In this document: positions 3,589-29,219 of the stretch, piece by piece
Numbering within the stretch: the stretch's first letter is position 1
Layout: the number at the start of each line of letters is the position of its first letter
IMG/VR virus record: IMGVR_UViG_2690316345_000022
Source: a virus
Taxonomy: Duplodnaviria; Heunggongvirae; Uroviricota; Caudoviricetes
Length of the DNA stretch: 30,122 nt
Direction: 5' to 3' (one strand)
Notes under the pieces: model-generated
Databases searched by the model: none
Seen by the model: the letters and a program-made list of their open reading frames with translations, nothing else
Told to the model about the DNA's origin: nothing
Program-made: the position numbers and the translations under genes

Positions 3589-4626
3589 ATGGCTGTAAAA
3601 GTTGTTGATCTTTTTTGTGGTGCTGGCGGTCTTACACATGGCCTAAGACAGGCCGGATTAAATGTAGTCGCTGGTATTGATATAGAGAGTGCATGCAGGG
3701 TTGCTTATGAAAGCAATAATAGTGCGCTTTTTATTGAAAAAGATATTTCTCTGGTAACCAAAGACGAGCTTGAAGGTCTATTTGAAGGGGCACAAGTTAA
3801 GGTATTGGCGGGATGTGCACCGTGCCAACCCTTTTCTAGGTATACGCAGGGGCGTGATAAGAAAAATGACAAAAAATGGCCTCTTCTTTACGAATTTGAA
3901 CGTTTAATTCGGGATGTTAATCCAGAGATTGTGACAATGGAAAATGTTCCTGATGTGACGAAGCATTCAGTTTACAGTGATTTCTATAATAGCTTAGAGT
4001 CATTAGGCTATTATGTTTGGGCAGGGACAGTTGAATGTGTAGATTATGGCATTCCACAAAATAGAGTAAGGCATGTATTATTAGCATCTAAATTTGCACC
4101 ACTTTCCTTTGTAAGACCAAAAGTACAAAAAACGGTAACGGTGAAAGAATGCATTGGTGGATTACCTCCATTAGAGGCAGGCCAGACGGATCCAGTTGAC
4201 CCTTTACATAAAGCAAGTAAATTAAGTGACATTAATCTTAAACGTATTGCTTGTTCAAAGCCTGGTGGAACGTGGCGAGATTGGCCGATAGAGTTGGTTG
4301 CGTCATGCCATATAAAGAAAAGTGGGCAAGGTTATGCCAGTGTCTATGGTCGTATGGACTGGGATAAACCAAGTCCTACCATCACCACGCTGTGTTATGG
4401 TTTTGGGAATGGCAGATTTGGCCACCCAGAGCAGAATCGTGCAATTTCTTTGAGAGAGGCAGCCCTGTTACAAACCTTTCCAAGTGATTACATTTTTACT
4501 GCACCTAATGAGAAGATCTCTGTGAAGAACGTTGGCAGGATGATCGGTAATGCCGTGCCGGTAAAATTAGGGAAGGTTATAGGTGAGTCAATTATAACCC
4601 ACCTAAAAGAGAATAATATAATTTAA
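3589..4626 (+). CDS. DNA (cytosine-5)-methyltransferase
   Basis: 345 aa with canonical C5-MTase motifs: I DLFCGAGG, IV GCAPCQPFS (catalytic Cys), VI ENVPDV, VIII QNRVR, X GNAVPVKLG. Target specificity unknown. Confidence 0.9.
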   Translation: MAVKVVDLFCGAGGLTHGLRQAGLNVVAGIDIESACRVAYESNNSALFIEKDISLVTKDELEGLFEGAQVKVLAGCAPCQPFSRYTQGRDKKNDKKWPLLYEFERLIRDVNPEIVTMENVPDVTKHSVYSDFYNSLESLGYYVWAGTVECVDYGIPQNRVRHVLLASKFAPLSFVRPKVQKTVTVKECIGGLPPLEAGQTDPVDPLHKASKLSDINLKRIACSKPGGTWRDWPIELVASCHIKKSGQGYASVYGRMDWDKPSPTITTLCYGFGNGRFGHPEQNRAISLREAALLQTFPSDYIFTAPNEKISVKNVGRMIGNAVPVKLGKVIGESIITHLKENNII

Positions 4627-5354
4627 GCCTGTAAACTTGATGATCGTATGTATAAGCGATCATCAAGATATTTTTGTATATTTTCTAGGATTTCTTCGAG
4701 GTAATAAAACACTTCATTTTTAAGAAGTTCAAGATTATCAATGGAAGTATCTTGGCCCTTGTTCAGAAAGGATTCTGAGCCATGCGCTAAAGCATTTCTG
4801 GCATTTTTTATATTTACTAAATTTCCACCATTATGAGTTTTTAAGCGATTTGTTTGAGAGGAAAATCCATATATATTAGCTACATCTCTAATTTTCTGTG
4901 CATCTACATTTCCAGAAAAAAGAGGGTTTTTATCTGCTTTGACTTGTTTTTTATGCTCCTCTAACCATTTTTTTAATACTAGTTTTGCAACATCGCCTTG
5001 TGAAAAATCCATGTCACTAACCATATGATGATCTAATTTTTTTAAGGCAAGTTTTGTTAAGCTTTCACATATCTTATCAATGCAAAGATCATTACATGAA
5101 TTGAGTTCGTCATGTATATCTTCAATAGCATTAGATATAGTGGCTTCTATTAGGTTATACAATATAATAAACGCATTTGCTTTAAGTATATGCGTCATTT
5201 CGATATCAATGTTACGAAGTTTGTACTCATCAGAATCACGATCTTTATAAGAGAATGATGGCCTCTCATCAATAATGAATTTAACAAAATCAAAATATTT
5301 TTCTATATCTTCTTTTCTTTCAGAGAATAATATTTTGCTGTTCATGGTGACCAC
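4623..5354 (-). CDS. HEPN-like domain protein (predicted nuclease), downstream partner of the DUF262 gene
   Basis: 243-aa ORF; predicted GTG start 6 nt after the DUF262 stop with GAGGAG RBS overlapping that stop; C-terminal ARNALAHG matches the HEPN Rx4-6H motif; very AT-rich. Confidence 0.6.
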   Translation of the reverse strand: MVTMNSKILFSERKEDIEKYFDFVKFIIDERPSFSYKDRDSDEYKLRNIDIEMTHILKANAFIILYNLIEATISNAIEDIHDELNSCNDLCIDKICESLTKLALKKLDHHMVSDMDFSQGDVAKLVLKKWLEEHKKQVKADKNPLFSGNVDAQKIRDVANIYGFSSQTNRLKTHNGGNLVNIKNARNALAHGSESFLNKGQDTSIDNLELLKNEVFYYLEEILENIQKYLDDRLYIRSSSLQA

Positions 5355-5360: not shown

Positions 5361-6485
5361 TTACTCCTCACTGTCATCTTGAACAGTATCTTGAGTCTGT
5401 ACACCTAAAAGTTTATCTCTTACATATTCAATTCGTGCTTTAACTTTAGGTTTTGAGTTCGAGGCATCAGATCTAGTATGTTTAATGAACTCTACAGAGT
5501 TAAGCCATTCAGTTACTGGGGCTGGTGTTATGCTTGGATTAGTTTGTAAGGCTAAAGTTGAACCAACAGCCAGTGCTTCAAAACGTATTCTTGGTACAGT
5601 ATTTGCCGTTTCGTTTTTTCTGAAACCATAGGGGAAATTCTGTTTTACAAATCTGCACATATCTTGAAATTGTTTAGCTAATTTGTTTTCTTGTTCAGCG
5701 GAAAATGTATTATTTCTATTATCAAGATATTGAGTTAGGAATGTGTCAACACTTTTTTCAAAGTGGAGATAGTTATCACAATATGCGAAATATCTAAGAA
5801 CTAATTCAGGATATTCTCCTCGATTGATTCGAGCATCGTTTAGGGGACATATTTCTCTAAACAATGGAAGTTCAGACAGACTATTAATGAAATCCAGGAA
5901 AGGACCATCATTGCTGCCTTGTCGCTGCTCCATTGTTGTAAGTCTTATTCCGCCTGTATTTAATCTATCGAAAATCTCTCTCCTTGCTTCTTCATCACAT
6001 AATTCAGTGAGTTCAATCATTCTAATAGTTTTCCTGTCGAATCTAAGCTTACGCGCAGGTGTGAAGTCAGAGTATTTGAATCCGTTAGCTGAAGTTAGTT
6101 TTTTTAATCCAGTAAGAGTAAATTTATCATTTAGGAAATGATAAAGTGTTCTAATCCTCTGGCTGCCATCAACGATTTCCAATCGTCCATCGTCATTTCC
6201 GATATCGGCGACAAATACATATGGAATAGGAATGTTTAGTAAAAGCGATTCAATGAATCTTGATTTTTGTATATTGTTCCAAACAAACTCCCTTTGATAG
6301 TCAGGAATATATAGCTCAGCTTGATCGGTTTCTAATCCTTTCTGAAACTTGTCAACAATAACACTAACAGGAAATTCTCTGATTTGGTGATCGGTTATTT
6401 TTTGCATGGATTTGATCTGGCTATCCAGTTCAATTTTATCTTCTTCTGTGATCACTTGTTCAGGCTGTCTTGGGACTCTTGCCAT
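5361..6485 (-). CDS. DUF262 / ParB-like (GmrSD N-terminal-type) domain protein
   Basis: ORF 5361..6512; likely ATG at 6485 (MARVPRQPEQ...) preceded by AAGGAG RBS; contains IVDGSQRIRTL, a variant of the DGQQR motif of DUF262; no obvious DUF1524/HNH motif seen by eye. Confidence 0.75.
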   Translation of the reverse strand: MARVPRQPEQVITEEDKIELDSQIKSMQKITDHQIREFPVSVIVDKFQKGLETDQAELYIPDYQREFVWNNIQKSRFIESLLLNIPIPYVFVADIGNDDGRLEIVDGSQRIRTLYHFLNDKFTLTGLKKLTSANGFKYSDFTPARKLRFDRKTIRMIELTELCDEEARREIFDRLNTGGIRLTTMEQRQGSNDGPFLDFINSLSELPLFREICPLNDARINRGEYPELVLRYFAYCDNYLHFEKSVDTFLTQYLDNRNNTFSAEQENKLAKQFQDMCRFVKQNFPYGFRKNETANTVPRIRFEALAVGSTLALQTNPSITPAPVTEWLNSVEFIKHTRSDASNSKPKVKARIEYVRDKLLGVQTQDTVQDDSEE

Positions 6486-6628
6486 GTGGTTTCTCCTTAT
6501 GCTTATTTGCAATAAGTTGCATTAGTTTGCATGTGTAATTTTATACTGATTTAATCCCACAAACTCTTTACATGCAAGGGGTTGAAGCTTAAATGCAACT
6601 GCATTAAAACCGTCCCATGAAGCGGGCG

Positions 6629-6789: not shown

Positions 6790-6813
6790 TAAAAAAGCCG
6801 CCCGCAGGCGGCG
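6790..6813 (-). terminator. Rho-independent terminator downstream of Q (minus strand)
   Basis: On the minus strand, directly after the Q stop: GCCGCC-TGCG-GGCGGC hairpin followed by TTTTTTA. Confidence 0.6.
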
Positions 6814-6817
6814 ATGT

Positions 6818-9624: not shown

Positions 9625-9797
9625 GAATACCTCGCCGTGATGAATACACGGCAAGGCTACTGAGTCGCGCCCCGCGATTCGCTAAGGTGCTGTTGTGTCA
9701 GTGATAAGCCATCCGGGACTGATGGCGGAGGATGCGCATCGTCGGGAAACTGATGCCGACATGTGACTCCTCTAATCACTATTCAGGACTCCTGACA
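9625..9797. promoter_or_regulatory. Divergent late-promoter region between P (leftward) and O (rightward)
   Basis: Intergenic position between divergent late operons as in P2 (Ogr-dependent PP/PO); specific -10/-35 or activator sites not confidently identified by eye. Confidence 0.4.
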
Positions 9798-10652: not shown

Positions 10653-10710
10653 CCGACGTCAGTCAGTCCGGGAAAACCTTCACGATTAACCCTTAATTTC
10701 AGGAAAAACT

Positions 10711-11784
10711 ATGCGCCAGGAAACCCGCTTTAAATTTAATGCCTACCTGTCCCGTGTTGCCGAACTGAACGGCATCGACGCCGGTGATGTGTCGAAAAAA
10801 TTCACCGTTGAACCGTCGGTCACCCAGACCCTGATGAACACCATGCAGGAGTCCTCTGACTTTCTGACCCGCATCAATATTGTGCCGGTCAGCGAAATGA
10901 AAGGGGAAAAAATTGGTATCGGTGTCACCGGCTCCATCGCCAGCACCACCGACACAGCCGGTGGCACCGAGCGTCAGCCGAAGGACTTCTCGAAGCTGGC
11001 GTCAAACAAGTACGAATGCGACCAGATTAACTTCGATTTTTATATCCGCTACAAAACGCTGGACCTGTGGGCGCGTTATCAGGATTTCCAGCTCCGTATC
11101 CGTAACGCCATTATCAAACGCCAGTCCCTTGATTTCATCATGGCCGGTTTTAACGGCGTGAAGCGTGCCGAAACCTCTGACCGCAGCAGCAATCCGATGC
11201 TGCAGGATGTGGCGGTCGGCTGGCTGCAGAAATACCGCAATGAAGCCCCGGCGCGCGTGATGAGCAAGGTCACTGACGAGGAAGGGCACACCACCTCTGA
11301 GGTCATCCGCGTGGGTAAGGGCGGTGATTATGCCAGCCTTGATGCACTGGTGATGGATGCGACCAACAACCTGATTGAGCCGTGGTATCAGGAAGACCCT
11401 GACCTTGTGGTGATTGTGGGACGTCAGCTACTGGCGGACAAGTATTTTCCCATCGTCAACAAGGAGCAGGACAACAGCGAAATGCTGGCCGCTGACGTCA
11501 TCATCAGCCAGAAACGCATCGGCAACCTGCCGGCGGTACGCGTCCCGTACTTCCCGGCGGATGCGATGCTCATCACGAAGCTGGAAAACCTGTCCATCTA
11601 CTACATGGATGACAGCCATCGCCGCGTGATTGAGGAAAACCCGAAACTCGACCGCGTGGAGAACTACGAGTCAATGAACATTGATTACGTGGTGGAGGAC
11701 TACGCCGCCGGTTGTCTGGTGGAAAAAATTAAGGTCGGTGATTTCTCCACACCGGCTAAAGCGACCGCAGAGCCGGGAGCGTAA
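10711..11784 (+). CDS. N: Major capsid protein gpN
   Basis: 357 aa; length and position match P2 gpN. Confidence 0.93.
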   Translation: MRQETRFKFNAYLSRVAELNGIDAGDVSKKFTVEPSVTQTLMNTMQESSDFLTRINIVPVSEMKGEKIGIGVTGSIASTTDTAGGTERQPKDFSKLASNKYECDQINFDFYIRYKTLDLWARYQDFQLRIRNAIIKRQSLDFIMAGFNGVKRAETSDRSSNPMLQDVAVGWLQKYRNEAPARVMSKVTDEEGHTTSEVIRVGKGGDYASLDALVMDATNNLIEPWYQEDPDLVVIVGRQLLADKYFPIVNKEQDNSEMLAADVIISQKRIGNLPAVRVPYFPADAMLITKLENLSIYYMDDSHRRVIEENPKLDRVENYESMNIDYVVEDYAAGCLVEKIKVGDFSTPAKATAEPGA

Positions 11785-11787
11785 CCG

Positions 11788-12531
11788 ATGACGAGTCCCG
11801 CACAGCGCCACATGATGCGGGTCTCGGCAGCGATGACCGCGCAGCGGGAAGCCGCCCCGCTGCGACATGCAACTGTCTATGAGCAGATGCTGGTTAAGCT
11901 CGCCGCAGACCAGCGCACACTGAAAGCGATTTATTCAAAAGAGCTTAAGGCCGCGAAAAAACGCGAACTGCTGCCGTTCTGGTTGCCGTGGGTGAACGGC
12001 GTGCTGGAGCAGGGCAAAGGTGCACAGGATGACATTCTGATGACGGTCATGCTGTGGCGTCTGGATACCGGCGATATTGCCGGTGCGCTGGAGATTGCCC
12101 GTTATGCCCTGAAGTACGGTCTGACCATGCCGGGTAAACACCGCCGCACCCCGCCGTACATGTTCACAGAGGAGGTGGCGCTTGCGGCCATGCGCGCTCA
12201 CGCTGCCGGTGAGTCTGTGAATCCCCGCCTGCTGACGGACACCCTTGAACTGACCGCCACGGCTGACATGCCTGATGAAGTGCGCGCAAAGCTGCACAAA
12301 ATCACCGGTCTGTTTCTGCGTGACGCTGGTGATGCCGCCGGTGCGCTGGCGCACCTGCAACGTGCGACACAGCTCGACTGTCAGGCAGGCGTCAAAAAAG
12401 AGATTGAACGACTGGAGCGGGAGCTGAAACCGAAGCCGGAGCCGCAGCCCAAAGCGGCCACCCGTGCCCCGCGTAAGACCCGGAGTGCGACACCGGCAAA
12501 ACGTGGACGCCCGAAAAAGAAAGCCAGTTAA
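11788..12531 (+). CDS. M: Terminase small (endonuclease) subunit gpM
   Basis: 247 aa; basic K/R-rich C-terminus; position after N as in P2. Confidence 0.9.
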   Translation: MTSPAQRHMMRVSAAMTAQREAAPLRHATVYEQMLVKLAADQRTLKAIYSKELKAAKKRELLPFWLPWVNGVLEQGKGAQDDILMTVMLWRLDTGDIAGALEIARYALKYGLTMPGKHRRTPPYMFTEEVALAAMRAHAAGESVNPRLLTDTLELTATADMPDEVRAKLHKITGLFLRDAGDAAGALAHLQRATQLDCQAGVKKEIERLERELKPKPEPQPKAATRAPRKTRSATPAKRGRPKKKAS

Positions 12532-12630
12532 CAACCGAATGCGCCCCGCGCCAGGGCGGCACGCCGGTCAGTGTGGGTGAATCACCTGACATTGTACCGG
12601 CGTCCACCGCCCGACTTTTCTGAGGTAGTC

Positions 12631-13140
12631 ATGATGACGCTGATTATTCCGCGAAAGGAGGCTCCCGTGTCCGGTGAGGGTACGGTGGTCATCCCGCAAC
12701 CGGCAGGCGACGAGCCGGTGATTAAAAACACGTTCTTTTTTCCCGATATCGACCCGAAGCGCGTCCGGGAACGTATGCGCCTTGAGCAGACCGTCGCCCC
12801 CGCCCGTCTGCGTGAGGCCATCAAGTCAGGCATGGCGGAGACGAATGCGGAGCTGTACGAGTACCGCGAACAGAAAATTGCCGCCGGTTTTACGCGTCTG
12901 GCTGACGTCCCGGCGGACGATATCGACGGTGAAAGCATCAAGGTTTTTTACTACGAGCGCGCCGTGTGTGCGATGGCGACCGCGTCGCTTTATGAGCGTT
13001 ATCGCGGCGTGGATGCCAGTGCGAAAGGCGACAAGAAGGCCGACAGCATTGACAGCACTATTGATGAGCTGTGGCGGGATATGCGCTGGGCGGTGGCGCG
13101 TATCCAGGACAAGCCGCGCTGCATCGTGAGTCAAATCTGA
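12631..13140 (+). CDS. L: Head completion/stabilisation protein gpL
   Basis: ORF 12571..13140; ATG at 12631 (MMTLIIPRKEAP...) gives 169 aa as in P2 gpL. Confidence 0.9.
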   Translation: MMTLIIPRKEAPVSGEGTVVIPQPAGDEPVIKNTFFFPDIDPKRVRERMRLEQTVAPARLREAIKSGMAETNAELYEYREQKIAAGFTRLADVPADDIDGESIKVFYYERAVCAMATASLYERYRGVDASAKGDKKADSIDSTIDELWRDMRWAVARIQDKPRCIVSQI

Positions 13141-13343
13141 TGAAGACCTTTGCGCTACAGGGCGACACGCTCGACGCCATCTGTGTCCGGTATTACGGGC
13201 GCACTGAGGGCGTGGTTGAGACCGTGCTCGCCGCAAATCCGGGACTGGCTGAACTGGGTGCGGTGCTGCCACACGGCACCGCCGTCGAACTGCCCGACGT
13301 TCAGACCGCGCCCGTGGCTGAAACTGTCAATCTGTGGGAGTAA
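13140..13343 (+). CDS. X: Tail protein gpX
   Basis: ATG overlapping L stop (ATGA); 67 aa MKTFALQGDTLDAICVRYYGRTEG... as in P2 gpX. Confidence 0.85.
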   Translation: MKTFALQGDTLDAICVRYYGRTEGVVETVLAANPGLAELGAVLPHGTAVELPDVQTAPVAETVNLWE

Positions 13344-13346
13344 CGC

Positions 13347-13628
13347 ATGACAGCAGAAGAAAAAAGCGTCCTGTCGCTTTTCATGATTGGGGTGCTGATT
13401 GTTGTCGGCAAGGTGCTTGCCGGTGGTGAACCCATCACCCCGCGTCTGTTTATCGGGCGCATGTTGCTCGGTGGTTTTGTCTCGATGGTTGCCGGTGTTG
13501 TTCTGGTGCAGTTTCCTGACCTGTCACTGCCTGCGGTGTGCGGCATCGGCTCCATGCTGGGTATCGCCGGTTATCAGGTGATTGAGATTGCCATTCAGCG
13601 CCGCTTTAAGGGCAGGGGGAAACCGTAA
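13347..13628 (+). CDS. Y: Holin gpY
   Basis: 93 aa; hydrophobic transmembrane segments (SVLSLFMIGVLIVVGKVLAGG...); position before endolysin. Confidence 0.85.
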   Translation: MTAEEKSVLSLFMIGVLIVVGKVLAGGEPITPRLFIGRMLLGGFVSMVAGVVLVQFPDLSLPAVCGIGSMLGIAGYQVIEIAIQRRFKGRGKP

Positions 13629-14125
13629 TGCCGGTAATTAACACGCATCAGAATATCGCCGCCTTTCTCGACATGCTGGCCGTGTCCGAAGGGACGGCGA
13701 ATCATCCGCTGACGAAAAACCGGGGCTATGACGTGATAGTCACCGGACTGGACGGAAAGCCGGAAATTTTCACCGACTACAGTGACCACCCGTTCGCGCA
13801 TGGCCGACCGGCGAAGGTGTTTAACCGTCGCGGTGAAAAATCCACGGCCTCCGGTCGCTATCAGCAGCTTTACCTGTTCTGGCCGCATTACCGCAAACAG
13901 CTTGCCCTGCCGGATTTCAGTCCGTTGTCACAGGACAGACTCGCCATTCAGTTGATCCGCGAACGCGATGCGCTGGATGACATCCGGGCGGGACGTATTG
14001 AGCGCGCCATTTCACGCTGTCGCAATATCTGGGCGTCCCTGCCGGGAGCCGGTTACGGTCAGCGTGAGCATTCACTGGAAAAACTGGTCACCGTCTGGCG
14101 TACCGCTGGCGGCGTACCGGCTTAA
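13628..14125 (+). CDS. K: Endolysin gpK (lysozyme-like)
   Basis: 165 aa; start overlaps Y stop; position and length as in P2 gpK. Confidence 0.9.
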   Translation: MPVINTHQNIAAFLDMLAVSEGTANHPLTKNRGYDVIVTGLDGKPEIFTDYSDHPFAHGRPAKVFNRRGEKSTASGRYQQLYLFWPHYRKQLALPDFSPLSQDRLAIQLIRERDALDDIRAGRIERAISRCRNIWASLPGAGYGQREHSLEKLVTVWRTAGGVPA

Positions 14126-14139
14126 ACGGAGTAAACACC

Positions 14140-14565
14140 ATGAAGAAATTATCCCTTTCACTGATGCTGAATGTGTCGCTGGCGCTGATGCTGGCACTGT
14201 CCCTGATTTACCCCCAGAGCGTGGCCGTCAATTTTGTCGCCGCCTGGGCGATTCTGGCGACGGTTATCTGTGTGGTTGCCGGTGGTGTCGGCGTGTATGC
14301 CACTGAGTATGTGCAGGAACGCTACGGGCGGGAGCTGCCGCCGGAATCGCTGGCCGTGAAGATTGTCACGGCGCTGTTTTTGCAGCCGGTGCCGTGGCGC
14401 AGGCGGTCAGTGGCTCTGGTAGTGATGGTGGCGACGTTTATCTCGCTGGTCGCTGCCGGGTGGATTTTTACCGCGCTGATTTATCTCGTGGCATCGGTGT
14501 TCTTCCGGCTGATACGTACGGCCTGCCGTCAGCGTTTTGAGGGGCGGGAACCATGTCAAAGCTGA
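14140..14565 (+). CDS. lysA: Lysis timing protein LysA (membrane protein)
   Basis: 141 aa with several hydrophobic helices; position after K. Confidence 0.8.
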   Translation: MKKLSLSLMLNVSLALMLALSLIYPQSVAVNFVAAWAILATVICVVAGGVGVYATEYVQERYGRELPPESLAVKIVTALFLQPVPWRRRSVALVVMVATFISLVAAGWIFTALIYLVASVFFRLIRTACRQRFEGREPCQS

Positions 14566-14978
14566 TGACTGTGCTGGTTGTGTTGTTATCACTGGCGGTG
14601 GCCGGTCTGTTTCTGGTGAAACATAAAAATGCCAGCCTGCGCGCCTCGCTGGACAGGGCGAACAACGTCGCCAGCGGGCAGCAGACGACCATCACCATGC
14701 TGAAAAATCAGCTTCATGTTGCGCTCACCAGGGCAGACAAAAACGAGCTGGCGCAGGTGGCTCTGCGTCAGGAACTGGAGAACGCCGCGAAGCGTGAAGC
14801 ACAGCGCGAGAAAACCATCACGAGATTACTCAATGAAAACGAAGATTTTCGCCGCTGGTACGGTGCTGACCTGCCTGATGCTGTGCGCCGGTTGCACCAG
14901 CGCCCCGCCTGCACTGACGCCAGTGATTGTCGCCAACGCCTGCCCAAAAGTGAGTCTTTGCCCGATGCCGGGCAGTGA
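14553..14978 (+). CDS. lysB: LysB (i-spanin-like, Rz equivalent)
   Basis: 141 aa; N-terminal TM segment (LMTVLVVLLSLAVAGLFL) followed by charged coiled-coil-like region. Confidence 0.8.
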   Translation: MSKLMTVLVVLLSLAVAGLFLVKHKNASLRASLDRANNVASGQQTTITMLKNQLHVALTRADKNELAQVALRQELENAAKREAQREKTITRLLNENEDFRRWYGADLPDAVRRLHQRPACTDASDCRQRLPKSESLPDAGQ

Positions 14979-15123
14979 CCCGGAGACGAACGGCGAATTA
15001 AGTGCCGATATCCGGCAGCTTGAGAACGCGCTGGCACGCTGTGCCAGCCAGGTAAAAATGATTAAACACTGTCAGGACGAAAACGATGCTCAAACCCGAC
15101 AGCCTGCGCAGGGCACTGACTGA
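14833..15123 (+). CDS. lysC: LysC (o-spanin-like lipoprotein, Rz1 equivalent), overlapping lysB in another frame
   Basis: Within ORF 14716..15123: MKTKIFAAGTVLTCLMLCAGCTS has a lipobox-like signal peptide; 96 aa from this ATG, overlapping the 3' part of lysB and extending past it. Confidence 0.7.
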   Translation: MKTKIFAAGTVLTCLMLCAGCTSAPPALTPVIVANACPKVSLCPMPGSDPETNGELSADIRQLENALARCASQVKMIKHCQDENDAQTRQPAQGTD

Positions 15124-15553
15124 TGCCGTCACGGTGCTGAAAACCAGCCCCGAGATGCTGCGGATATTCGTGGATAACGGGAGTATTGCCTCCACACTGG
15201 CGACGTCGTTGTCATTCGAAAAGCGTTACACGCTCAATGTGATTGTGACCGACTTTACCGGTGATTTTGACCTGCTCATTGTGCCGGTGCTGGCGTGGCT
15301 GCGGGAAAATCAGCCCGACATCATGACCACTGACGAAGGCCAGAAAAAGGGCTTCACGTTTTATGCAGACATCAACAATGACAGCAGCTTTGATATCAGT
15401 ATCAGCCTGATGCTGACCGAGCGCACGCTGGTCAGTGAGGTGGACGGTGCGCTGCATGTGAAGAATATCCCGGAACCCACGCCGCCGGAGCCGGTCACCC
15501 GCCCGATGGAGCTTTATATCAATGGCGAACTGGTGAGCAAGTGGGATGAATGA
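15086..15553 (+). CDS. R: Tail completion protein gpR
   Basis: 155 aa; length and position as in P2. Confidence 0.9.
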   Translation: MLKPDSLRRALTDAVTVLKTSPEMLRIFVDNGSIASTLATSLSFEKRYTLNVIVTDFTGDFDLLIVPVLAWLRENQPDIMTTDEGQKKGFTFYADINNDSSFDISISLMLTERTLVSEVDGALHVKNIPEPTPPEPVTRPMELYINGELVSKWDE

Positions 15554-15998
15554 GTTTAAGCGTTTTGAAGACCGGCTGACCGGACTGACTGAATCGTTGT
15601 CACCGTCAGGGCGTCGGAGACTGAGCGCCGAACTGGCGAAGCGCCTGCGGCAGAGTCAGCAGCGTCGGGTGATGGCACAGCAAGCCCCGGACGGCACACC
15701 CTATGCGCCACGCCAGCAGCAGAGCGCCAGAAAAAAGACTGGCCGTGTTAAGCGAAAAATGTTTGCGAAACTTATCACCAGTCGTTTTTTGCATATCCGC
15801 GCCAGCCCTGAACAGGCATCAATGGAGTTTTACGGCGGGAAGTCACCGAAAATAGCCAGTGTGCATCAGTTCGGTCTGTCGGAAGAAACCCGGAAAGACG
15901 GTAAGAAAATTGATTATCCGGCGCGTCCTCTGCTCGGCTTTACCGGTGAGGATGTGCAGATGATTGAAGAGATTATCCTGGCTCACCTCGACCGTTAG
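15546..15998 (+). CDS. S: Tail completion protein gpS
   Basis: 150 aa; overlaps R end; as in P2. Confidence 0.9.
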   Translation: MNEFKRFEDRLTGLTESLSPSGRRRLSAELAKRLRQSQQRRVMAQQAPDGTPYAPRQQQSARKKTGRVKRKMFAKLITSRFLHIRASPEQASMEFYGGKSPKIASVHQFGLSEETRKDGKKIDYPARPLLGFTGEDVQMIEEIILAHLDR

Positions 15999-16064
15999 TT
16001 GTGCCATTCCCGACACCTCATCGTTACATTGCCGCCGGTATGACCCGGCGGCATCCTTCCCGTT

Positions 16065-16706
16065 ATGAACACTCTCGCAAATATTCAGGAACTCGGGCGC
16101 GTACTGCGCAACATGATACGCCCTGGCATTATCGTCGAAACCGACCTTAAAGCCGGTCGCTGCCGTGTGCAGACCGGTGGCATGTGCACCGACTGGCTTC
16201 AGTGGCTGACCCATCGTGCCGGACGTTCGCGCACATGGTGGGCACCTTCCGTGGGGGAACAGGTGCTGATTCTGGCCGTGGGTGGTGAACTCGACACGGC
16301 GTTCGTTCTGCCGGGGATTTATTCCGGCGATAACCCTCCGCCGTCTGCGTCGGCGGATGCCGTGCATATCCGTTTCCCTGATGGGGCGGTGATTGAGTAT
16401 GAACCCGAAACCAGTGCACTCACGGTAAGCGGAATTAAAACGGCCAGCGTGACGGCTTCTGATTCTGTTACTGCCACGGTGCCGGTGGTCACGGTGAAAG
16501 CATCAACCCGCATCACCCTGAACACACCGGAAGTGGTCTGCACCAACAAGCTGATTACCGGCACGCTGGAAGTGCAGAAGGGCGGGAAGATGCACGGCAA
16601 CATCGCGCATACCGACGGGAAATTCACGTCTAACGGCGTTCAGGTGGATGACCACGGTCACGGTGGTGTTAAGTCAGGAGACAACTGGACACAGGGGACA
16701 AAATGA
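16065..16706 (+). CDS. V: Baseplate central spike protein gpV
   Basis: 213 aa, MNTLANIQELGRVLRNMIRPGIIVETD...; first gene of the V-W-J-I-H-G operon. Confidence 0.9.
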   Translation: MNTLANIQELGRVLRNMIRPGIIVETDLKAGRCRVQTGGMCTDWLQWLTHRAGRSRTWWAPSVGEQVLILAVGGELDTAFVLPGIYSGDNPPPSASADAVHIRFPDGAVIEYEPETSALTVSGIKTASVTASDSVTATVPVVTVKASTRITLNTPEVVCTNKLITGTLEVQKGGKMHGNIAHTDGKFTSNGVQVDDHGHGGVKSGDNWTQGTK

Positions 16707-18496: not shown

Positions 18497-20707
18497 ATGA
18501 GCACAAAATTCAGAACCGTTATCACCACTGCCGGTGCAGCAAAGCTGGCAGCGGCAACCGCACCGGGAGGGCGGAAGGTCAACATTACCACGATGGCCGT
18601 CGGGGATGGCGGTGGTAAATTGCCTGTCCCGGATGCCGGACAGACCGGGCTTATCCACGAAGTCTGGCGACATACGCTGAACAAAATCAGCCAGGACAAA
18701 CGAAACAGTAATTATATTATCGCAGAGCTGGTTATTCCGCCGGAGGTGGGCGGTTTCTGGATGCGTGAGCTTGGCCTGTACGATGATGCGGGAACATTAA
18801 TTGCCGTGGCGAACATGGCCGAAAGTTATAAGCCAGCTCTCGCCGAAGGCTCAGGGCGTTCGCAGACCTGTCGCATGGTCATCATCGTCAGCAGTGTGGC
18901 CTCAGTGGAGCTGACCATTGACACCACAACAGTGATGGCGACGCAGGATTACGTTGATGACAAAATTGCAGAGCACGAACAGTCACGACGTCACCCGGAC
19001 GCCTCGCTGACCGCCAAAGGTTTTACTCAGTTAAGCAGTGCGACCAACAGCACGTCTGAAACACTGGCCGCAACGCCGAAAGCGGTAAAGGCCGCGTATG
19101 ACCTTGCTAACGGGAAATATACTGCGCAGGATGCCACCACAGCGCGAAAAGGTCTTGTCCAGCTCAGTAGTGCCACCAACAGCACGTCTGAAACGCTCGC
19201 TGCAACACCAAAAGCGGTAAAAGCAGCATATGACCTGGCTAACGGGAAATATACCGCACAGGACGCCACCACCGCGCGAAAAGGCCTTGTCCAGCTAAGT
19301 AGCGTCACCAACAGCGATTCTGAAACGCTTGCGGCAACGCCAAAGGCGGTTAAGACAGCGTATGACCTTGCTAACGGGAAATACACTGCACAGGATGCCA
19401 CCACAGCGCGAAAAGGGCTTGTCCAGCTCAGTAGCGCCACCAACAGTGATTCTGAAACCCTCGCGGCAACGCCAAAAGCAGTGAAGTCTGCCTATGACAA
19501 TGCTGAAAAACGTCTTCAGAAAGATCAGAACGGTGCGGATATTCCGGGAAAGGATACCTTCACGAAAAATATCGGTGCCTGTCGTGCTTATAGCGGCGCT
19601 TTGAGCACTGAAGCCGGAAACTGGACAACCGCTCAGTTTATTGACTGGCTAGAGTCTCAGGGAGCCTTTAATCATCCTTACTGGATGTGCAAGTGTTCCT
19701 GGTCATATGGTAATAACAAAATTATTACCGATACTGACTGTGGGACTATTCATCTTGCAGGTTGCGTGATTGAGGTTATGGGCGTTAAAGCAGCAATGAC
19801 CATTCGTGTGACCACTCCGAGTACATCAAGCGGTGGTGGTACCACCAGTGCGCAATTCACGTATATCAATCACGGAGCTGATTATGCGCCGGGCTGGCGA
19901 CGTGACTACAATACGAAAAATAAGCAACCGGCTTTTGCATTAGGGAAAACAGGAAATACGGTTGCAAATAATAAAGCGGTAGGATGGAACTGGGACAGTG
20001 GTGCTTATTGTGCACAGGATGGCGGAGCATCAAAAATGGTGCTGCATTTTTACACGGGTGAGGGAAGTTGTCCGGCAATGCAGTTTCTTGTGGATTATAA
20101 AAACAGGGGGATTTTTTACAGGTCGGCACGTGATGGGTATGGATTTGAGGCTGACTGGTCAGAGTTTTATACCACATCACGAAAGCCAACACCTGCGGAT
20201 ATTCTTGCTCTGGCATTATCAGGCGGAAGCATGTCAGGCAGCATAAAATTTATCAATGATGCCTTCCTGATTTGGGAAAGAAACACTGACTGGGCGAAAA
20301 TTGGATTTAAAAATGATTCAGATGCTGATTCTGACTCATACATGTGGTTTGAAACTGGTGATAATGGCAATGAATATTTTAAATGGCGCATCAGGTCTGG
20401 CAGCACAACAAAAGACCTGATGACGCTTAAGTCTGATGCACTTCGGGTTACCGGGCAGGTGATACCATCAAATTTCAGCAATTTTGACTCCCGCTATGTC
20501 CGGGATATCCGGCTTGGTGGTGCCGCCACATACAAACCTGCGAACAATGGCATGACATGGACACATCAGGCACCGTCCGGGTGTGTATATACCGGCATTA
20601 TTGTTCAGGATACCGGCTCAAACTCTGCCGATAACATTGGTGGCGTATATTACAGACCGGTTCAGAAATACATTAACGGGACGTGGTACAACGTGGCGCA
20701 GGTATAA
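18497..20707 (+). CDS. H: Tail fibre protein gpH (repeat-expanded, divergent C-terminal receptor-binding region)
   Basis: 736 aa; conserved N-terminal region, internal tandem repeats, divergent C-terminal half. Confidence 0.9.
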   Translation: MSTKFRTVITTAGAAKLAAATAPGGRKVNITTMAVGDGGGKLPVPDAGQTGLIHEVWRHTLNKISQDKRNSNYIIAELVIPPEVGGFWMRELGLYDDAGTLIAVANMAESYKPALAEGSGRSQTCRMVIIVSSVASVELTIDTTTVMATQDYVDDKIAEHEQSRRHPDASLTAKGFTQLSSATNSTSETLAATPKAVKAAYDLANGKYTAQDATTARKGLVQLSSATNSTSETLAATPKAVKAAYDLANGKYTAQDATTARKGLVQLSSVTNSDSETLAATPKAVKTAYDLANGKYTAQDATTARKGLVQLSSATNSDSETLAATPKAVKSAYDNAEKRLQKDQNGADIPGKDTFTKNIGACRAYSGALSTEAGNWTTAQFIDWLESQGAFNHPYWMCKCSWSYGNNKIITDTDCGTIHLAGCVIEVMGVKAAMTIRVTTPSTSSGGGTTSAQFTYINHGADYAPGWRRDYNTKNKQPAFALGKTGNTVANNKAVGWNWDSGAYCAQDGGASKMVLHFYTGEGSCPAMQFLVDYKNRGIFYRSARDGYGFEADWSEFYTTSRKPTPADILALALSGGSMSGSIKFINDAFLIWERNTDWAKIGFKNDSDADSDSYMWFETGDNGNEYFKWRIRSGSTTKDLMTLKSDALRVTGQVIPSNFSNFDSRYVRDIRLGGAATYKPANNGMTWTHQAPSGCVYTGIIVQDTGSNSADNIGGVYYRPVQKYINGTWYNVAQV
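19013..19500 (+). repeat. Tandem 132-bp (44-codon) coding repeats inside tail-fibre gene H, about 3.7 copies
   Basis: Protein repeat ARKGLVQLSS(A/V)TNS(T/D)SETLAATPKAVK(A/T/S)AYDLANGKYTAQDATT recurs with period 132 nt (e.g. gcgcgaaaagg at about 19145, 19277 and 19409). Confidence 0.85.
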
Positions 20708-21459: not shown

Positions 21460-22053
21460 ATGTTTACTAAGCGACGATTAAAAAATATTAACTGGGAGGC
21501 AAGTTCAGTGATTCTTGCTATGGTTCTCTTTGTTGGAAATATATTTTATACAAATCATCGTGATGATATAAGCATGGAGGCTGAGAGGGACAGTATCAGA
21601 ACAATGTTTGCATATGAAATCGCTAATAACCATCGCGCTCTCACTTTTCTTGATAAAACGAGACATATTGGCTTTGACGAAAATTCGGAGCATTTTGTTG
21701 GCGAGCCTTTTGCCATTAATGTCAAATCATTAGGGGGGCCTCGCTTACAGATTGCATTAAACCAGACTGATAAAGTGTTTAAATCCTACTTCAGCGAATT
21801 AAGTAAGCTTGATAAAGAGGATGTTACTCTTCTTATGGACTATTACCATGAGCAAAGCATCCTGCTGGAGCGTGTAAAATCTACGTTACAGAAGATGAAA
21901 AGTGGTAATGATATTAAAGTTGATATTGATGGTTACTTATTAGAAGAACACTTCATGAATGAGCTTAATCTTTCTAATATTTTGCTTAAACGCTATAGCC
22001 ATTTGTTGTCACAATACGCTAAAGAACATAAAACAAAAGATTTACATAATTGA
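21460..22053 (+). CDS. Hypothetical membrane-anchored protein in the G-FI accessory slot (P2 Z/fun position)
   Basis: 197-aa ORF in an AT-rich island; N-terminus MFTKRRLKNINWEASSVILAMVLFVGNIFY is a basic stretch followed by a hydrophobic helix; AAGG RBS upstream; no recognisable catalytic motifs. Confidence 0.6.
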   Translation: MFTKRRLKNINWEASSVILAMVLFVGNIFYTNHRDDISMEAERDSIRTMFAYEIANNHRALTFLDKTRHIGFDENSEHFVGEPFAINVKSLGGPRLQIALNQTDKVFKSYFSELSKLDKEDVTLLMDYYHEQSILLERVKSTLQKMKSGNDIKVDIDGYLLEEHFMNELNLSNILLKRYSHLLSQYAKEHKTKDLHN

Positions 22054-24160: not shown

Positions 24161-24436
24161 ATGAACAAAGAAAATGTGATTACCCTGGACAATCCGGTCA
24201 GGCGTGGTGAGCAGGTTATCGAACAGGTCACGCTGATGAAACCCAGTGCGGGGACGCTGCGCGGTGTCAGTCTGGCTGCGGTCGCAAACTCAGAAGTCGA
24301 TGCACTGATTAAGGTGCTGCCGCGCATGACGGCACCGATGCTGACCGAGCAGGAAGTCGCCGCGCTGGAACTGCCTGACCTTGTGGCGCTGGCCGGTAAG
24401 GTGGTCGGTTTTTTGTCGCCGAACTCGGTGCAGTGA
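24161..24436 (+). CDS. E: Tail assembly chaperone gpE
   Basis: 91 aa; contains slippery TTTTTTG near its 3' end. Confidence 0.85.
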   Translation: MNKENVITLDNPVRRGEQVIEQVTLMKPSAGTLRGVSLAAVANSEVDALIKVLPRMTAPMLTEQEVAALELPDLVALAGKVVGFLSPNSVQ

Positions 24437-24588
24437 CGTTCCCGAAAAATCTGTCGGTCGATGACCTGATGGCGGATGTGGCAGTGATATTTCACTGGCC
24501 GCCATCAGAACTGTATCCCATGAGCCTGACCGAACTCATCACATGGCGCGAAAAGGCGCTCCGGCGAAGCGGAAACACGAATGAGTAA
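24161..24588 (+). CDS. E+E': gpE+E' fusion produced by programmed -1 ribosomal frameshift at TTTTTTG (24409-24415)
   Basis: The -1 frame after the slippery heptamer is open to a TAA at 24586-24588, overlapping the T start; mirrors the known P2 E/E' arrangement. Confidence 0.7.
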
Positions 24589-27028
24589 CAATGTAAAATT
24601 ACAGGTATTGCTCAGGGCTGTTGACCAGGCATCCCGCCCGTTTAAATCCATCCGCACAGCGAGCAAGTCGCTGTCGGGGGATATCCGGGAAACACAAAAA
24701 TCACTGCGCGAGCTGAACGGTCACGCATCCCGTATTGAGGGATTTCGCAAGACCAGCGCACAGCTCGCCGTGACTGGTCATGCACTTGAAAAGGCACGGC
24801 AGGAGGCCGAAGCACTTGCCACACAGTTTAAAAACACTGAACGTCCGACCCGTGCTCAGGCGAAAGTGCTGGAATCCGCAAAGCGTGCGGCGGAGGACTT
24901 ACAGGCGAAATATAACCGCCTGACGGATTCCGTTAAACGCCAGCAGCGGGAACTGGCCGCTGTGGGAATTAATACCCGCAATCTTGCACATGATGAGCAG
25001 GGGCTGAAAAACCGTATCAGTGAAACCACCGCACAGCTTAACCGGCAGCGTGACGCGCTGGCGCGTGTCAGTGCACAACAGGCAAAACTTAACGCAGTCA
25101 AACAGCGTTATCAGGCAGGAAAAGAACTTGCCGGAAATATGGCCTCAGTGGGCGCTGCCGGTGTGGGGATTGCGGCGGCGGGAACGATGGCCGGAGTTAA
25201 GCTGCTGATGCCCGGTTATGAGTTTGCGCAGAAAAACTCAGAATTGCAGGCCGTGCTCGGTGTGGCAAAAGATTCCGCCGAAATGGCCGCGCTCCGCAAA
25301 CAGGCGCGCCAGCTCGGCGACAATACCGCCGCCTCAGCGGATGATGCGGCCGGTGCGCAGATTATCATTGCGAAAGCGGGTGGAGATGCTGCGGCTATTC
25401 AGGCGGCAACGCCGGTCACGCTGAATATGGCACTGGCGAATCAGCGGTCGATGGAAGAAAACGCGCAACTGTTGCTGGGGACTAAGGCATCCTTTCAACT
25501 GTCAAATGATGATGTCAGCCATGTGGGCGACGTGTTGTCGGCAACGATGAATAAGTCGGCGGCTGATTTTCAGGGACTCAGTGATGCACTGACTTACCTC
25601 GGTCCGGTTGCGAGGACGGCAGGTGTAAGTCTTGAACAGGCAGCGGCCATGACAGGTGTGCTGCATGACAATAACATCAGGGGGTCAATGGCGGGTACGG
25701 GTGGCAGTGCCGTTGTCACCCGATTACAGGCACCGACTGGAAAAGCATGGGATGCACTCAAAGAGCTTGGCGTTAAAACCTCGGACAAAAAGGGAAATAT
25801 GCGTCCGTTGTTCACCATTCTGAAAGAGATTCAGGCCAGCTTTGATAAACACAAGCTGGGAACGTCTCAGAAGGGGGAATACCTTAAAACCATTTTTGGT
25901 GAGGAAGCCCTGAAATCAGCGAACGTTTTACTGGCAGCGGCTGCAAGCGGAAAACTGGATAAGCTGACCGCCACACTGAAAGCCTCAGACGGTAAAACGG
26001 AAGAGCTGGTTAAAATCATGCAGGACAACCTCGGCGGTGACTTTAAGGAGTTTCAGTCCGCTTATGAAGCGGTGGGGACTGACCTGTTTGACCAGCAGGA
26101 AGGCGCACTGCGTAAGCTCACGCAGACGGCCACAAAGTATGTGTTAAAACTCGACGGCTGGATCCAGAAAAACAAATCACTGGCGTCAACCATTGGCCTA
26201 ATTGCCGGTGGCGCGCTGGCGCTTACTGGCATCATCGGTGCCATTGGTCTTGTAGCCTGGCCGGTTATCACCGGCATCAATGCCATCATCGCGGCAGCAG
26301 GCGCAATGGGGGCAATCTTCACGACGGTTGGCAGTGCTGTTATGACCGCCATCGGGGCGATTAGCTGGCCGGTTGTGGCCGTGGTGGCCGCCATTGTCGC
26401 CGGGGCGTTGCTTATCCGTAAATACTGGGAGCCTGTCAGCGCATTCTTTGGCGGTGTGATGGAAGGGCTGAAAGCGGCATTTGCGCCGGTGGGGGAACTG
26501 TTCACGCCACTTAAGCCGGTGTTTGACTGGCTGGGCGAAAAGTTACAGGCCGCGTGGCAGTGGTTTAAAAACCTGATTGCCCCGGTCAAAGCCACCCAGG
26601 ACACCCTGAACCGTTGCCGTGATACTGGCGTCATGTTCGGGCAGGCACTGGCTGACGCGCTGATGCTGCCGCTTAATGCGTTCAACAAACTGCGCAGCGG
26701 AATTGACTGGGTACTGGAAAAACTCGGTGTTATCAACAAAGAGTCAGACACACTTGACCAGACCGACGCCAGAACTCAAGCCGCCACGTATGGCAGCGGT
26801 GGTTATATTCCGGCGACCAGCTCTTATGCAGGCTATCAGGCTTATCAGCCGGTTACGGCACCGGCTGGCCGCTCTTATGTGGACCAGAGTAAAAACGAAT
26901 ATCACATCAGCCTGACGGGTGGTACTGCGCCGGGGACACAGCTTGACCGCCAGTTACAGGATGCGCTCGAAAAATACGAGCGGGATAAACGTGCGCGCGC
27001 CCGTGCCAGCATGATGCATGACGGTTAA
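24581..27028 (+). CDS. T: Tail tape measure protein gpT
   Basis: 815 aa, the P2 gpT length; coiled-coil N-terminal region and glycine/alanine-rich hydrophobic segment. Confidence 0.93.
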   Translation: MSNNVKLQVLLRAVDQASRPFKSIRTASKSLSGDIRETQKSLRELNGHASRIEGFRKTSAQLAVTGHALEKARQEAEALATQFKNTERPTRAQAKVLESAKRAAEDLQAKYNRLTDSVKRQQRELAAVGINTRNLAHDEQGLKNRISETTAQLNRQRDALARVSAQQAKLNAVKQRYQAGKELAGNMASVGAAGVGIAAAGTMAGVKLLMPGYEFAQKNSELQAVLGVAKDSAEMAALRKQARQLGDNTAASADDAAGAQIIIAKAGGDAAAIQAATPVTLNMALANQRSMEENAQLLLGTKASFQLSNDDVSHVGDVLSATMNKSAADFQGLSDALTYLGPVARTAGVSLEQAAAMTGVLHDNNIRGSMAGTGGSAVVTRLQAPTGKAWDALKELGVKTSDKKGNMRPLFTILKEIQASFDKHKLGTSQKGEYLKTIFGEEALKSANVLLAAAASGKLDKLTATLKASDGKTEELVKIMQDNLGGDFKEFQSAYEAVGTDLFDQQEGALRKLTQTATKYVLKLDGWIQKNKSLASTIGLIAGGALALTGIIGAIGLVAWPVITGINAIIAAAGAMGAIFTTVGSAVMTAIGAISWPVVAVVAAIVAGALLIRKYWEPVSAFFGGVMEGLKAAFAPVGELFTPLKPVFDWLGEKLQAAWQWFKNLIAPVKATQDTLNRCRDTGVMFGQALADALMLPLNAFNKLRSGIDWVLEKLGVINKESDTLDQTDARTQAATYGSGGYIPATSSYAGYQAYQPVTAPAGRSYVDQSKNEYHISLTGGTAPGTQLDRQLQDALEKYERDKRARARASMMHDG

Positions 27029-27042: not shown

Positions 27043-27522
27043 ATGATGCTCGCGTTAGGTATGTTTGTTTTTAGGCGCCAGACGCTGCCACACCAGACCA
27101 TGCAGCGTGAATCAGATTATCGCTGGCCGTCAAATTCCCGTATCGGTAAACGGGATGCCTTTCAGTTTCTCGGTGTGGGTGAGGAAAACATCACACTTGC
27201 CGGCGTGCTTTATCCCGAACTGACCGGCGGGAAGCTGACGATGACCACGCTCAGGCTGATGGCAGAGGAAGGCCGGGCGTGGCCGTTGCTGGATGGCACC
27301 GGCATGATTTACGGCATGTATGTCATCAGCAAGGTGAGTGAAACAGGGAGTATTTTCTTTGCAGATGGCACACCCCGAAAAATTGATTTTACGCTGTCGC
27401 TCACCCGCGTTGATGAATCACTGGCCGCGCTTTATGGCGATATCGGTAAACAGGCGGAATCGCTCATCGGTAAGGCTGGCAGTATGGCGACTAAATTCAC
27501 GGGTATGACGGGGGCGGGATAA
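27043..27522 (+). CDS. U: Tail protein gpU
   Basis: 159 aa; as in P2. Confidence 0.9.
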   Translation: MMLALGMFVFRRQTLPHQTMQRESDYRWPSNSRIGKRDAFQFLGVGEENITLAGVLYPELTGGKLTMTTLRLMAEEGRAWPLLDGTGMIYGMYVISKVSETGSIFFADGTPRKIDFTLSLTRVDESLAALYGDIGKQAESLIGKAGSMATKFTGMTGAG

Positions 27523-28684
27523 TGCTGGATGCGCTGACATTTGATGCAGGCAGTACGCTGACGCCGGATTACATGCTGATGCTCGACAGCAGGGATATTA
27601 CCGGCAATATCAGCGACCGTCTGATGAACATGACCCTGACGGATAACCGGGGCTTTGAGGCTGACCAGCTTGATATTGAACTGAACGATGCCGACGGGCA
27701 GGTCGGGCTGCCGGTTCGTGGCGCTGTCCTGACGGTGTATATCGGCTGGAAAGGTTTTGCCCTGGTATGCAAAGGGAAATTTACCGTTGATGAGGTTGAA
27801 CACCGGGGCGCACCGGATGTGGTCACCATCCGCGCCCGGAGTGCAGATTTTCGCGGGACGCTCAATTCCCGCCGTGAAGGCTCCTGGCATGACACCACGC
27901 TCGGTGCGATTGTTGAGGCGATAGCCTCCCGTAACAGGCTGGAAGCCAGTGTCGTTCCATCACTGGCCGGAATTAAAATCCCGCACATCGACCAGTCGCA
28001 GGAGTCTGATGCAAAATTCCTGACCCGCCTTGCTGAACGCAACGGCGGTGAGGTGTCGGTAAAAATGGGAAAACTGTTGTTTCTCAAGCGGGGCAGGGGG
28101 TGACGGCCAGCGGTAAAAAAGTCCCGCAGGTCACCATAACCCGCAGCGACGGCGACCGCCATCATTTTGCGATTGCTGACCGTGGAGCCTATACCGGCGT
28201 AACGGCAAAGTGGTTACACACCAAAGACCCGAAGCCGCAAAAGCAGAAGGTAAAACTGAAACGCAAAAAGAAAGAGAAACACCTGCGCGCACTGGAGCAC
28301 CCGAAAGCGAAACCAGTCACGCAGAAGAAAGCGCCAAAAGTACCGGAAGCGCGCGAAGGTGAATACATGGCCGGTGAGGCTGACAACGTTTTTGCACTGA
28401 CCACGGTATATGCCACGAAAGCACAGGCCATGCGCGCCGCTCAGGCGAAGTGGGATAAACTGCAACGGGGTGTGGCGGAGTTCTCCATCAGCCTGGCTAC
28501 CGGTCGGGCAGATATTTACACGGAAACACCGGTTAAAGTGTCAGGCTTTAAGCGCGTCATAGACGAGCAGGACTGGACAATCACTAAGGTGACACATTTT
28601 CTGAATAATAGCGGCTTCACGACGTCCTTAGAGCTTGAGGTCAGGCTTTCTGATGTGGAGTACGAAACCGAAGATGATGAGTGA
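27522..28684 (+). pseudogene. D: Tail protein gene D interrupted by an apparent 1-bp deletion (-1 frameshift near 28088); possible sequencing error
   Basis: Two abutting ORFs (27522..28103, 193 aa; 28100..28684, 194 aa) total the expected 387 aa of gpD; the second frame is open upstream and reads ...AGQGVTASGKK across the break. Confidence 0.6.
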
Positions 28685-28765: not shown

Positions 28766-28984
28766 ATGTTTCATTGTCCTTTATGCCAGCATGCCGCACA
28801 TGCGCGTACAAGCCGCTATATCACTGACACGACAAAAGAGCGTTATCACCAGTGTCAGAACGTGAATTGCAGCGCCACGTTCATCACTTATGAGTCGGTA
28901 CAGCGATACATCGTGAAGCCGGGAGAAGTCCACGCCGTAAGGCCGCACCCGTTACCATCAGGACAGCAAATTATGTGGATGTGA
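28766..28984 (+). CDS. ogr: Late gene transcriptional activator Ogr (zinc-finger)
   Basis: ORF 28703..28984; ATG at 28766 gives 72 aa MFHCPLCQHAAHARTSRYITDTTKERYHQCQNVNC... with the C-x2-C...C-x4-C zinc motif of Ogr/Delta. Confidence 0.9.
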   Translation: MFHCPLCQHAAHARTSRYITDTTKERYHQCQNVNCSATFITYESVQRYIVKPGEVHAVRPHPLPSGQQIMWM

Positions 28985-28994
28985 TCACAAAAAT

Positions 28995-29020
28995 AGCCCC
29001 TCAGTTGAGGGGCTTATTTA
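28995..29020 (+). terminator. Rho-independent terminator after ogr
   Basis: AGCCCCTCA-GT-TGAGGGGCT hairpin followed by TTATTTA; flanked by A-run on the other side (could act bidirectionally). Confidence 0.6.
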
Positions 29021-29110
29021 TGGTCGATGTGGACGCTATGTGGACAGTGCTTGATATAAATCCATTTATATCATCAGGTTAGGTGCTTTTTTGTGACACC
29101 ATCCCTGTCT
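29021..29110. other. attR: Probable attR junction region (prophage/host boundary); exact core not determinable without attL
   Basis: Lies between ogr, the last phage gene before attP in P2, and host-like sequence; contains a perfect 10-bp inverted repeat at 29052-29073. Confidence 0.4.
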
Positions 29111-29111
29111 T

Positions 29112-29138
29112 CCCCCACATGATGTGGGGGTTTTTTTT
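29112..29138 (+). terminator. Host rho-independent terminator upstream of fieF, resembling the cpxP 3'UTR / CpxQ sRNA terminator
   Basis: CCCCCACATGATGTGGGGG stem-loop followed by TTTTTTTT; preceding GACACCATCCCTGTCTTCCCCCACAT resembles my recollection of CpxQ. Confidence 0.5.
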
Positions 29139-29219
29139 ATCCTCAATTTGCCTGCTGCTTAATGCATTGCAGATGATTTGCTTCCGTTATACTAGCGTCA
29201 GTTGATAGCGGGAGTATTT

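Follow-up and report, generated by a model that had tools for sequence, protein, structure and literature searches.

A very recent one-base deletion most likely splits the baseplate hub gene D of an otherwise intact P2-like prophage of Escherichia coli

Results

Organization of the tail gene locus

The window, by which the whole analysed stretch of 30,122 nt is meant, carries a P2-like prophage that is located between cpxP and fieF in the E. coli draft genome GCA_001285045.1. Comparison with the P2 proteins by tblastn placed the last genes of the tail operon, T (24581-27025), U (27043-27519) and D (27522-28681), upstream of ogr (28766-28981). In detail, the following features were found in and around gene D:

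27043..27522, plus strand: gene U (tube initiator), directly 5′ of D in the F operon; 159/159 residues aligned with P2 gpU, 98% identity, gapless
27522..28684, plus strand: gene D of the P2-like prophage (baseplate hub, gp27-like); pseudogene of 1163 nt compared with 1164 nt
27522..28103, plus strand: ORF1, 193 aa with an ATG start; 189 native N-terminal gpD residues, then RGRG out of frame and a premature TGA
28052..28099, plus strand: native downstream frame, open 5′ of the GTG and overlapping ORF1 (from translation)
28086..28087, plus strand: deletion site, AA compared with AAA (Lys189 codon, followed by GCG) in all intact relatives
28100..28684, plus strand: ORF2, 194 aa; last 194 codons of D, native frame retained; the GTG corresponds to the native Val194 codon
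28101..28103, plus strand: premature TGA stop of ORF1, overlapping the GTG of ORF2 as GTGA and out of frame in the intact gene (direct reading)
28766..28984, plus strand: ogr (late-gene activator), intact, 3′ of D; 72/72 residues identical to P2 Ogr

The P2 gpD protein (387 aa) matches the window in two frames with 96-97% identity, residues 1-193 corresponding to positions 27522-28100 and residues 181-387 to positions 28061-28681 in the other frame. ORF1 and ORF2 share the tetranucleotide GTGA, and the second frame, which is open from 28052, yields ...GVGKNGKTVVSQAGQGVTASGKK ahead of the GTG and ...VVSQAGQGVTASGKK across the junction. The sequence-only reading that preceded this analysis had described two abutting half-length ORFs of 193 and 194 aa in place of one 387-aa gpD, a second frame open upstream of its GTG and a peptide reading across the junction. 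The arrangement of the ORFs is borne out by the ORF calls and by tblastn, the open frame and its peptide by translation. Translation that starts at the GTG of ORF2, a native Val194 codon, is only hypothetical.

Both ORFs exceed the gathering cut-off (30.1 bits) of the Pfam family PF05954 (Phage_GPD), ORF1 at model positions 11-145 of 305 (45.9 bits, E=5.7e-12) and ORF2 at model positions 166-304 of 305 (37.4 bits, E=2.2e-09). Since the two ORFs cover complementary halves of a single model, a chance pattern can be ruled out. The gene fits the gpD family by its profile, by its operon position after T and U and before ogr, and by hub homology. A single uninterrupted hub ORF of about 387 codons is not found in D of the window, where two ORFs of 193 and 194 codons take its place. 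The gene is a pseudogene of the PF05954 family and, as written, no functional member of it.

Identity of the missing base

The junction was aligned with the corresponding regions of L001 (chromosome of an ETEC strain), L002 (a further E. coli chromosome), the Logan records L006 and L008, the sibling prophages L011, L012 and L014, and phage P2. All intact relatives read CTCAAAGCGGGG where the window reads CTCAAGCGGGG; written in codons, CTC AAA GCG GGG CAG GGG GTG ACG stands against CTC AAG CGG GGC AGG GGG TGA. As judged from this alignment, the lost base is one A of the AAA run that forms the Lys189 codon. The deletion context is a run of three A and no long homopolymer. P2 likewise shows AAA at the deletion site, and its flanking G-run is GGGAG and not GGGGG.

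The sequence-only reading had attributed the split to a single G missing around 28088-28089. The loss of one base stands, its identity does not, as the relatives reveal a missing A and the window has AA at 28086-28087. Insertion of a G indeed restores the frame and even the same protein (AAG GCG encodes Lys-Ala), but it does not restore the sequence of the relatives. With the A put back, an ORF of 1164 nt encoding 387 aa is obtained. This restored gene differs from D of ETEC 602687 by one nucleotide and 1 aa, and its product differs from P2 gpD (NP_046784.1) by 6 substitutions. The exact restored 387-aa protein was found on 10 public contigs.

Length variation was also observed in a G5 run about 10 nt downstream of the deletion site (equivalent to 28095-28100), with a change from G5 to G4 in L006 (SRR5831611) and from G5 to G6 in L008 (ERR14839597). 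The G5 to G4 variant of SRR5831611 likewise yields ORFs of 193 and 194 aa.

Occurrence of the deletion in genomes, phages and sibling prophages

A 66-nt query spanning the junction matched 1482 records among complete E. coli genomes, and none was found to share the deletion. The full-length E. coli matches listed all have 67-nt targets and therefore one extra base; a single record fell into the band of at least 99% identity, is absent among the matches listed and is probably only a partial match. Among phages, all 69 records matched by the same query show less than 99% identity, those listed carry the extra base, and 0 of the 69 share the deletion. The length of D is 1164 nt in all 30 full-length phage matches listed. 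The exact 37-nt junction string had no match in IMG/VR or among JGI metagenome contigs. An exact copy of the 193-aa product has been recorded from two assemblies only, GCA_001285045.1 (CYCA01000016.1, from which the window is taken) and the one of run ERR137800 in Logan. A split arrangement shared by related functional phages, which the sequence-only reading had named as evidence against a deletion, was thus looked for and encountered in 0 of 69 phage records and 0 of about 1480 E. coli records.

Sibling prophages were reached through exact matches of the tape-measure and cargo proteins, the capsid protein being too unspecific as a probe. The exact 815-aa tape measure occurs on 21 contigs, and the arrangement of 193 plus 194 aa occurs only on the contig of the window itself. 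Three other arrangements are listed among these 21 contigs, all with a 387-aa D, and the remaining contigs were assigned to them on the basis of common neighbouring genes. In the siblings L012 and L014 (GCA_048049695.1 and ERZ1743082), comparison over 9543 and 8678 nt, respectively, revealed one SNP, at 24550, and the gap in D as the only differences from the window. Siblings found through a cargo protein show 1 and 4 SNPs and no gap against positions 1-16512; for L030, one SNP and 0 gaps were counted over 16512 nt. When near-identical prophages at this chromosomal position are compared over roughly 26 kb, no length difference other than the missing A in D is seen. Siblings that are only 1-4 SNPs away keep an intact D, so the defect should post-date a very recent common ancestor. 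On this comparative evidence, the deletion is private to one isolate and very recent.

Mutation or sequencing artefact

The restriction of the AA allele to one isolate also fits a different explanation, namely that D of this isolate is intact and that the missing A is an error of the reads or of the assembly. The missing base sits in a short homopolymer (AAA), and the siblings are identical to the window apart from the D gap and the SNP. The length variants of the Logan records L006 and L008 in the G5 run lie within 10 nt and could themselves be platform errors. A second assembly exists in Logan contig ERR137800_190, which equals the window over 4603 nt with the deletion included; position 24550 is G in this contig, as in the window, but A in the siblings L012 and L014. 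The run ERR137800 is tied to the NCBI assembly through sequence identity only, and both assemblies probably go back to one read set, by which a systematic error at the level of the reads could have entered both.

Against an artefact, however, stands the fact that two independent assemblers (those of the NCBI draft and of Logan on ERR137800) yield the same string over these 4603 nt. Furthermore, comparison with near-identical siblings over about 26 kb revealed no second indel (0 gaps in the 16512 nt aligned with L030 and only the gap in D in the 9543 nt aligned with L012), so the assembly does not appear to be prone to indels. A run of three bases is an atypical error site for a short-read consensus. 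From these comparisons, an artefact of the assembler appears very unlikely and a read-level error unlikely. Taken together, an intact D hidden behind a sequencing or consensus error is an improbable explanation. The homopolymer error that the sequence-only reading had offered as its alternative has become weak, given a run of only AAA, an agreeing Logan assembly and no other indel over about 26 kb.

We infer that the deletion was present in the sequenced DNA itself. It is possible that the AA allele is a mutation picked up in laboratory culture. From the sequences compared, we consider it most likely, with a probability of roughly 0.8, that one base was truly and very recently deleted and that this loss inactivates D in a P2-like prophage that is intact in other respects.

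Potential function of the split gene

A split gene might be tolerated if enough working hub were still made, and two routes are conceivable. In the first, the P-site tRNA-Gly would slip by -1 on GGGGG ahead of a slow UGA within the 52-nt overlap and the native frame would be regained. The native frame is open from 28052 to 28100, across ORF1, and a -1 slip within this stretch would yield the complete protein; by direct inspection, AGG GGG TGA permits perfect -1 re-pairing by a GGG-reading tRNA. In the second route, termination and reinitiation at GTGA would give two half-proteins that associate, and the GTGA overlap is accompanied by a weak, G-rich Shine-Dalgarno-like stretch (28090-28093) located 6 nt upstream. 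As the hub needs only three copies of gpD per virion, low-level frameshift suppression could make the defect leaky.

The evidence against such a leaky split is broader. Conservation of the two-ORF arrangement was not observed, as it recurs in 0 of about 1480 genome records and 0 of 69 phage records, and the siblings have one ORF of 387 aa. No slippery heptamer of the type X XXY YYZ occurs in the overlap (28052-28103), which contains only A4-A5 runs and one G5 run, all of them suited to single-tRNA slips. A stimulatory RNA structure was not detected in the region 28050-28190 either, where the folding energy of -48 kcal/mol is close to the mean of shuffled sequences (-46.1 kcal/mol, z = -0.49); the lack of both heptamer and stimulatory fold in the overlap region counts against this explanation. 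The break interrupts one continuous Pfam hub model, lies in a gapless part of the alignment with the pyocin R2 hub and does not coincide with an evident linker; the surroundings of the junction are plain wild-type coding sequence.

A programmed frameshift was rejected, as the arrangement does not recur in relatives and both a slippery heptamer and an RNA structure are lacking. That the split is tolerated through slippage or reinitiation is very unlikely. That the split D functions, be it by GTGA-coupled reinitiation and assembly of the halves or by a -1 slip, seems more doubtful still. If it did, the prophage would still be plaque-forming and a gp27-type hub would tolerate a cut at mid-length.

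State of the remaining prophage and its cargo

Apart from D, the late region of the prophage is well preserved. Full-length and gapless matches to P2 were obtained by tblastn for Q, P, O, N, M, L, X, Y, K, lysA, lysB and lysC, and also for R, S, W, J, I, G, FI, FII, E, T, U, ogr and A. V is gapless over the first 205 of 211 residues. The tail fibre gene H (18497-20707) is an open, mosaic ORF of 736 aa with 251 P2-like residues at its start (96% identity). The E/E′ slippery sequence is kept in the window as GGTTTTTTG at 24407-24420. D is the only broken gene inside the window. Loss of several essential phage genes, as in a decayed prophage, is not found within the window, and int, C, cox and B lie on another contig. 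The early region is complete in the siblings, which are likewise located between cpxP and fieF.

Two differences from P2 in gene content were observed in the late region. P2 orf30 is missing between S and V (window positions 15998-16065), and an ORF of 197 aa (21460-22053) lies between G and the sheath gene FI at the place of P2 fun(Z). This ORF has no match in Pfam or PADLOC; the siblings have kept it, with a called length of 181 or 197 aa.

Both assemblies break in the early region, ahead of the first base of the window: the source contig CYCA01000016.1 begins 281 nt before it, and the Logan contig ends at a distance of about 180 nt. That both assemblers break at nearly the same point suggests a repeat, possibly a second P2-like prophage that would be able to complement D.

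The P2 attP core is absent between ogr and fieF (28985-29200), where only the ogr terminator region matches P2. From the absence of this core and the location between cpxP and fieF, it follows that the attachment site differs from that of P2 itself. The integrase of the siblings is called at 326 aa. In the prophage of ETEC 602687 (L001/L009), whose D gene matches most closely, the space from ogr to fieF contains an insertion of ISEc22 (IS66 family), and the tail fibre gene is truncated and annotated as a pseudogene. At least one complete E. coli chromosome in RefSeq, NZ_CP189657.1 (L009), has the ATG of the P2-like gene A, a replication gene, as its very first codon. Several other E. coli records have D about 25-30 kb from the start of the record, which suggests the same start at gene A. 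Probably, genome-rotation software takes the phage replication gene for the chromosomal start gene.

At the place where P2 carries tin/old, with A/orf91 on one side and the portal gene on the other, lies a cargo island (3589-6512) of three genes:

3589..4626, plus strand: C5 DNA methylase (PADLOC DrmMII, 3.5e-94; MTase_II)
4623..5354, minus strand: HEPN_MAE_28990 protein of the cargo island
5361..6512, minus strand: GmrSD_N/DUF262 protein (PADLOC NsnA, 3.7e-55; PD-T4-2_A, 2.4e-34)

Based on these matches, the island is probably a defence module with its own methylase. The presence of a methylase/HEPN/GmrSD_N island at the tin/old hotspot together with a broken D in the same prophage is what would be expected of a long-domesticated, defective element that lost its tail function some time ago and was kept by selection for its defence and methylase cargo. 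The sequence-only reading had raised this idea of a defective element retained for its cargo. However, D is the sole lesion, the other P2 late genes being of full length or nearly so and the slippery site of E/E′ preserved; siblings that carry this cargo and occupy this chromosomal site keep an intact D at a distance of 1-4 SNPs, the nearest only one SNP away. The idea is therefore unsupported, and the lesion in D is too young for retention by selection to be deduced from it. Long domestication is a very unlikely history of this element, and a single broken gene does not justify the label "retained for cargo".

Discussion

Expected consequences for the hub and the tail

The lesion most probably arose as a very recent one-base deletion, and a simple course of events can be proposed. 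The Lys189 codon AAA would have lost one A through ordinary replication slippage. Translation of D would then run into four wrong residues (RGRG) and stop at the TGA at 28101-28103, with 189 of 387 residues being native. The truncation removes the last 198 residues and, with them, the second of the conserved blocks that can be aligned with the hub of pyocin R2.

By established P2 genetics, mutants in gene D make no functional tails. The hub is seated on the gpV spike and bears the six gpU tube initiators, and in its absence tail assembly cannot begin. The P2 record annotates D as a tail protein (tail formation). In the P2 baseplate, the central hub consists of three gpD copies located under six gpU (P2 cryo-EM preprint 10.64898/2026.09.14.750843). 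An induced prophage would still be expected to replicate, to package heads and to lyse the cell, but the particles would be tail-less and non-infectious. A prophage of this kind could presumably not act as a helper for P4-type satellites. Loss of tail assembly, which had already been proposed from the sequence, is thus a likely consequence of the split hub gene, and a tail-less phenotype is what we infer for this prophage. A co-resident P2-like prophage could provide gpD in trans. A polar effect on ogr is not expected, since ogr is intact and has its own promoter in P2, where -35 and -10 signals are annotated between D and ogr.

For the host, the mutation would probably be neutral; it would represent a first step of prophage decay that is neither selected nor regulated. 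The case illustrates this first step with a private lesion in an element that is otherwise intact and has whole siblings. For practical purposes, the "phage protein D" entries CTV11038.1 and CTV11078.1 of the draft genome should be read as one frameshifted pseudogene. In assessments of prophage completeness or of P4-like helper capacity, the element should be scored as probably tail-defective.

Comparison with known systems

Gene D of P2 is the obvious reference for the gene described here. Both occupy the same slot of the F operon (FI-FII-E/E′-T-U-D, then ogr) and share 96-97% amino acid identity in both halves, whereas D of the window is one A short in codon 189 and split. In agreement with the sequence-only reading, gene D of a P2-like prophage is split through a one-base deletion where an intact hub gene is expected and is present in all relatives.

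The closest solved relative of the restored D is the hub of pyocin R2 (PDB 6U5H chain C, E=1.6e-45). The hub is present as three chains in this entry, and the region of the break in D aligns to it without gaps. In contrast to gpD, this protein belongs to a Pseudomonas tailocin, comprises 329 aa, lacks the lysine-rich insertion and is one uninterrupted chain.

Overlapping ORFs in a -1 relation are known from the same operon, where the tail assembly chaperones E/E′ of P2 are produced by programmed -1 frameshifting. The E/E′ arrangement is conserved in all relatives and uses a slippery T-run, whereas the split of D is private and has neither a heptamer nor a stimulatory structure. There is no sign of a new mechanism in the split of D.

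The cryptic P2 remnant of E. coli K-12 likewise carries a fragment of D beside its ogr gene (ogrK). This fragment matches only nucleotides 949-1163 of the query. In K-12, the last approximately 215 nt of D are left in a heavily deleted remnant, whereas the window has the whole late region with one base missing.

Counterparts of the lesion are genes annotated in RefSeq as "phage late control D family protein, frameshifted". They represent the same gene in P2-like prophages of E. coli with a single-base indel in a short G/A run:

NZ_CP148363.1: D pseudogene WHU05_RS00160
NZ_CP043295.1: D pseudogene FYK54_RS03645
NZ_CP148426.1: D pseudogene WHU39_RS01845

Their frameshifts are located at D nucleotides 28, 284 and 587, compared with 565-567 in the window, and each represents an independent event. 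The junction as a hotspot of indels was considered and rejected, as these frameshifts in complete genomes are scattered along the gene. The G5 variants are no evidence for a hotspot either, since the look-up with the exact 194-aa ORF2 selects for indels within about 20-50 nt of the GTG. Among about 86 close full-length D matches listed for complete E. coli genomes, a net length change is present in 3, all of which are annotated as frameshifted. Frameshifts in D occur in a few percent of related prophages; the split of D matters little beyond annotation, and the lesion in the window is of an ordinary, already known kind.
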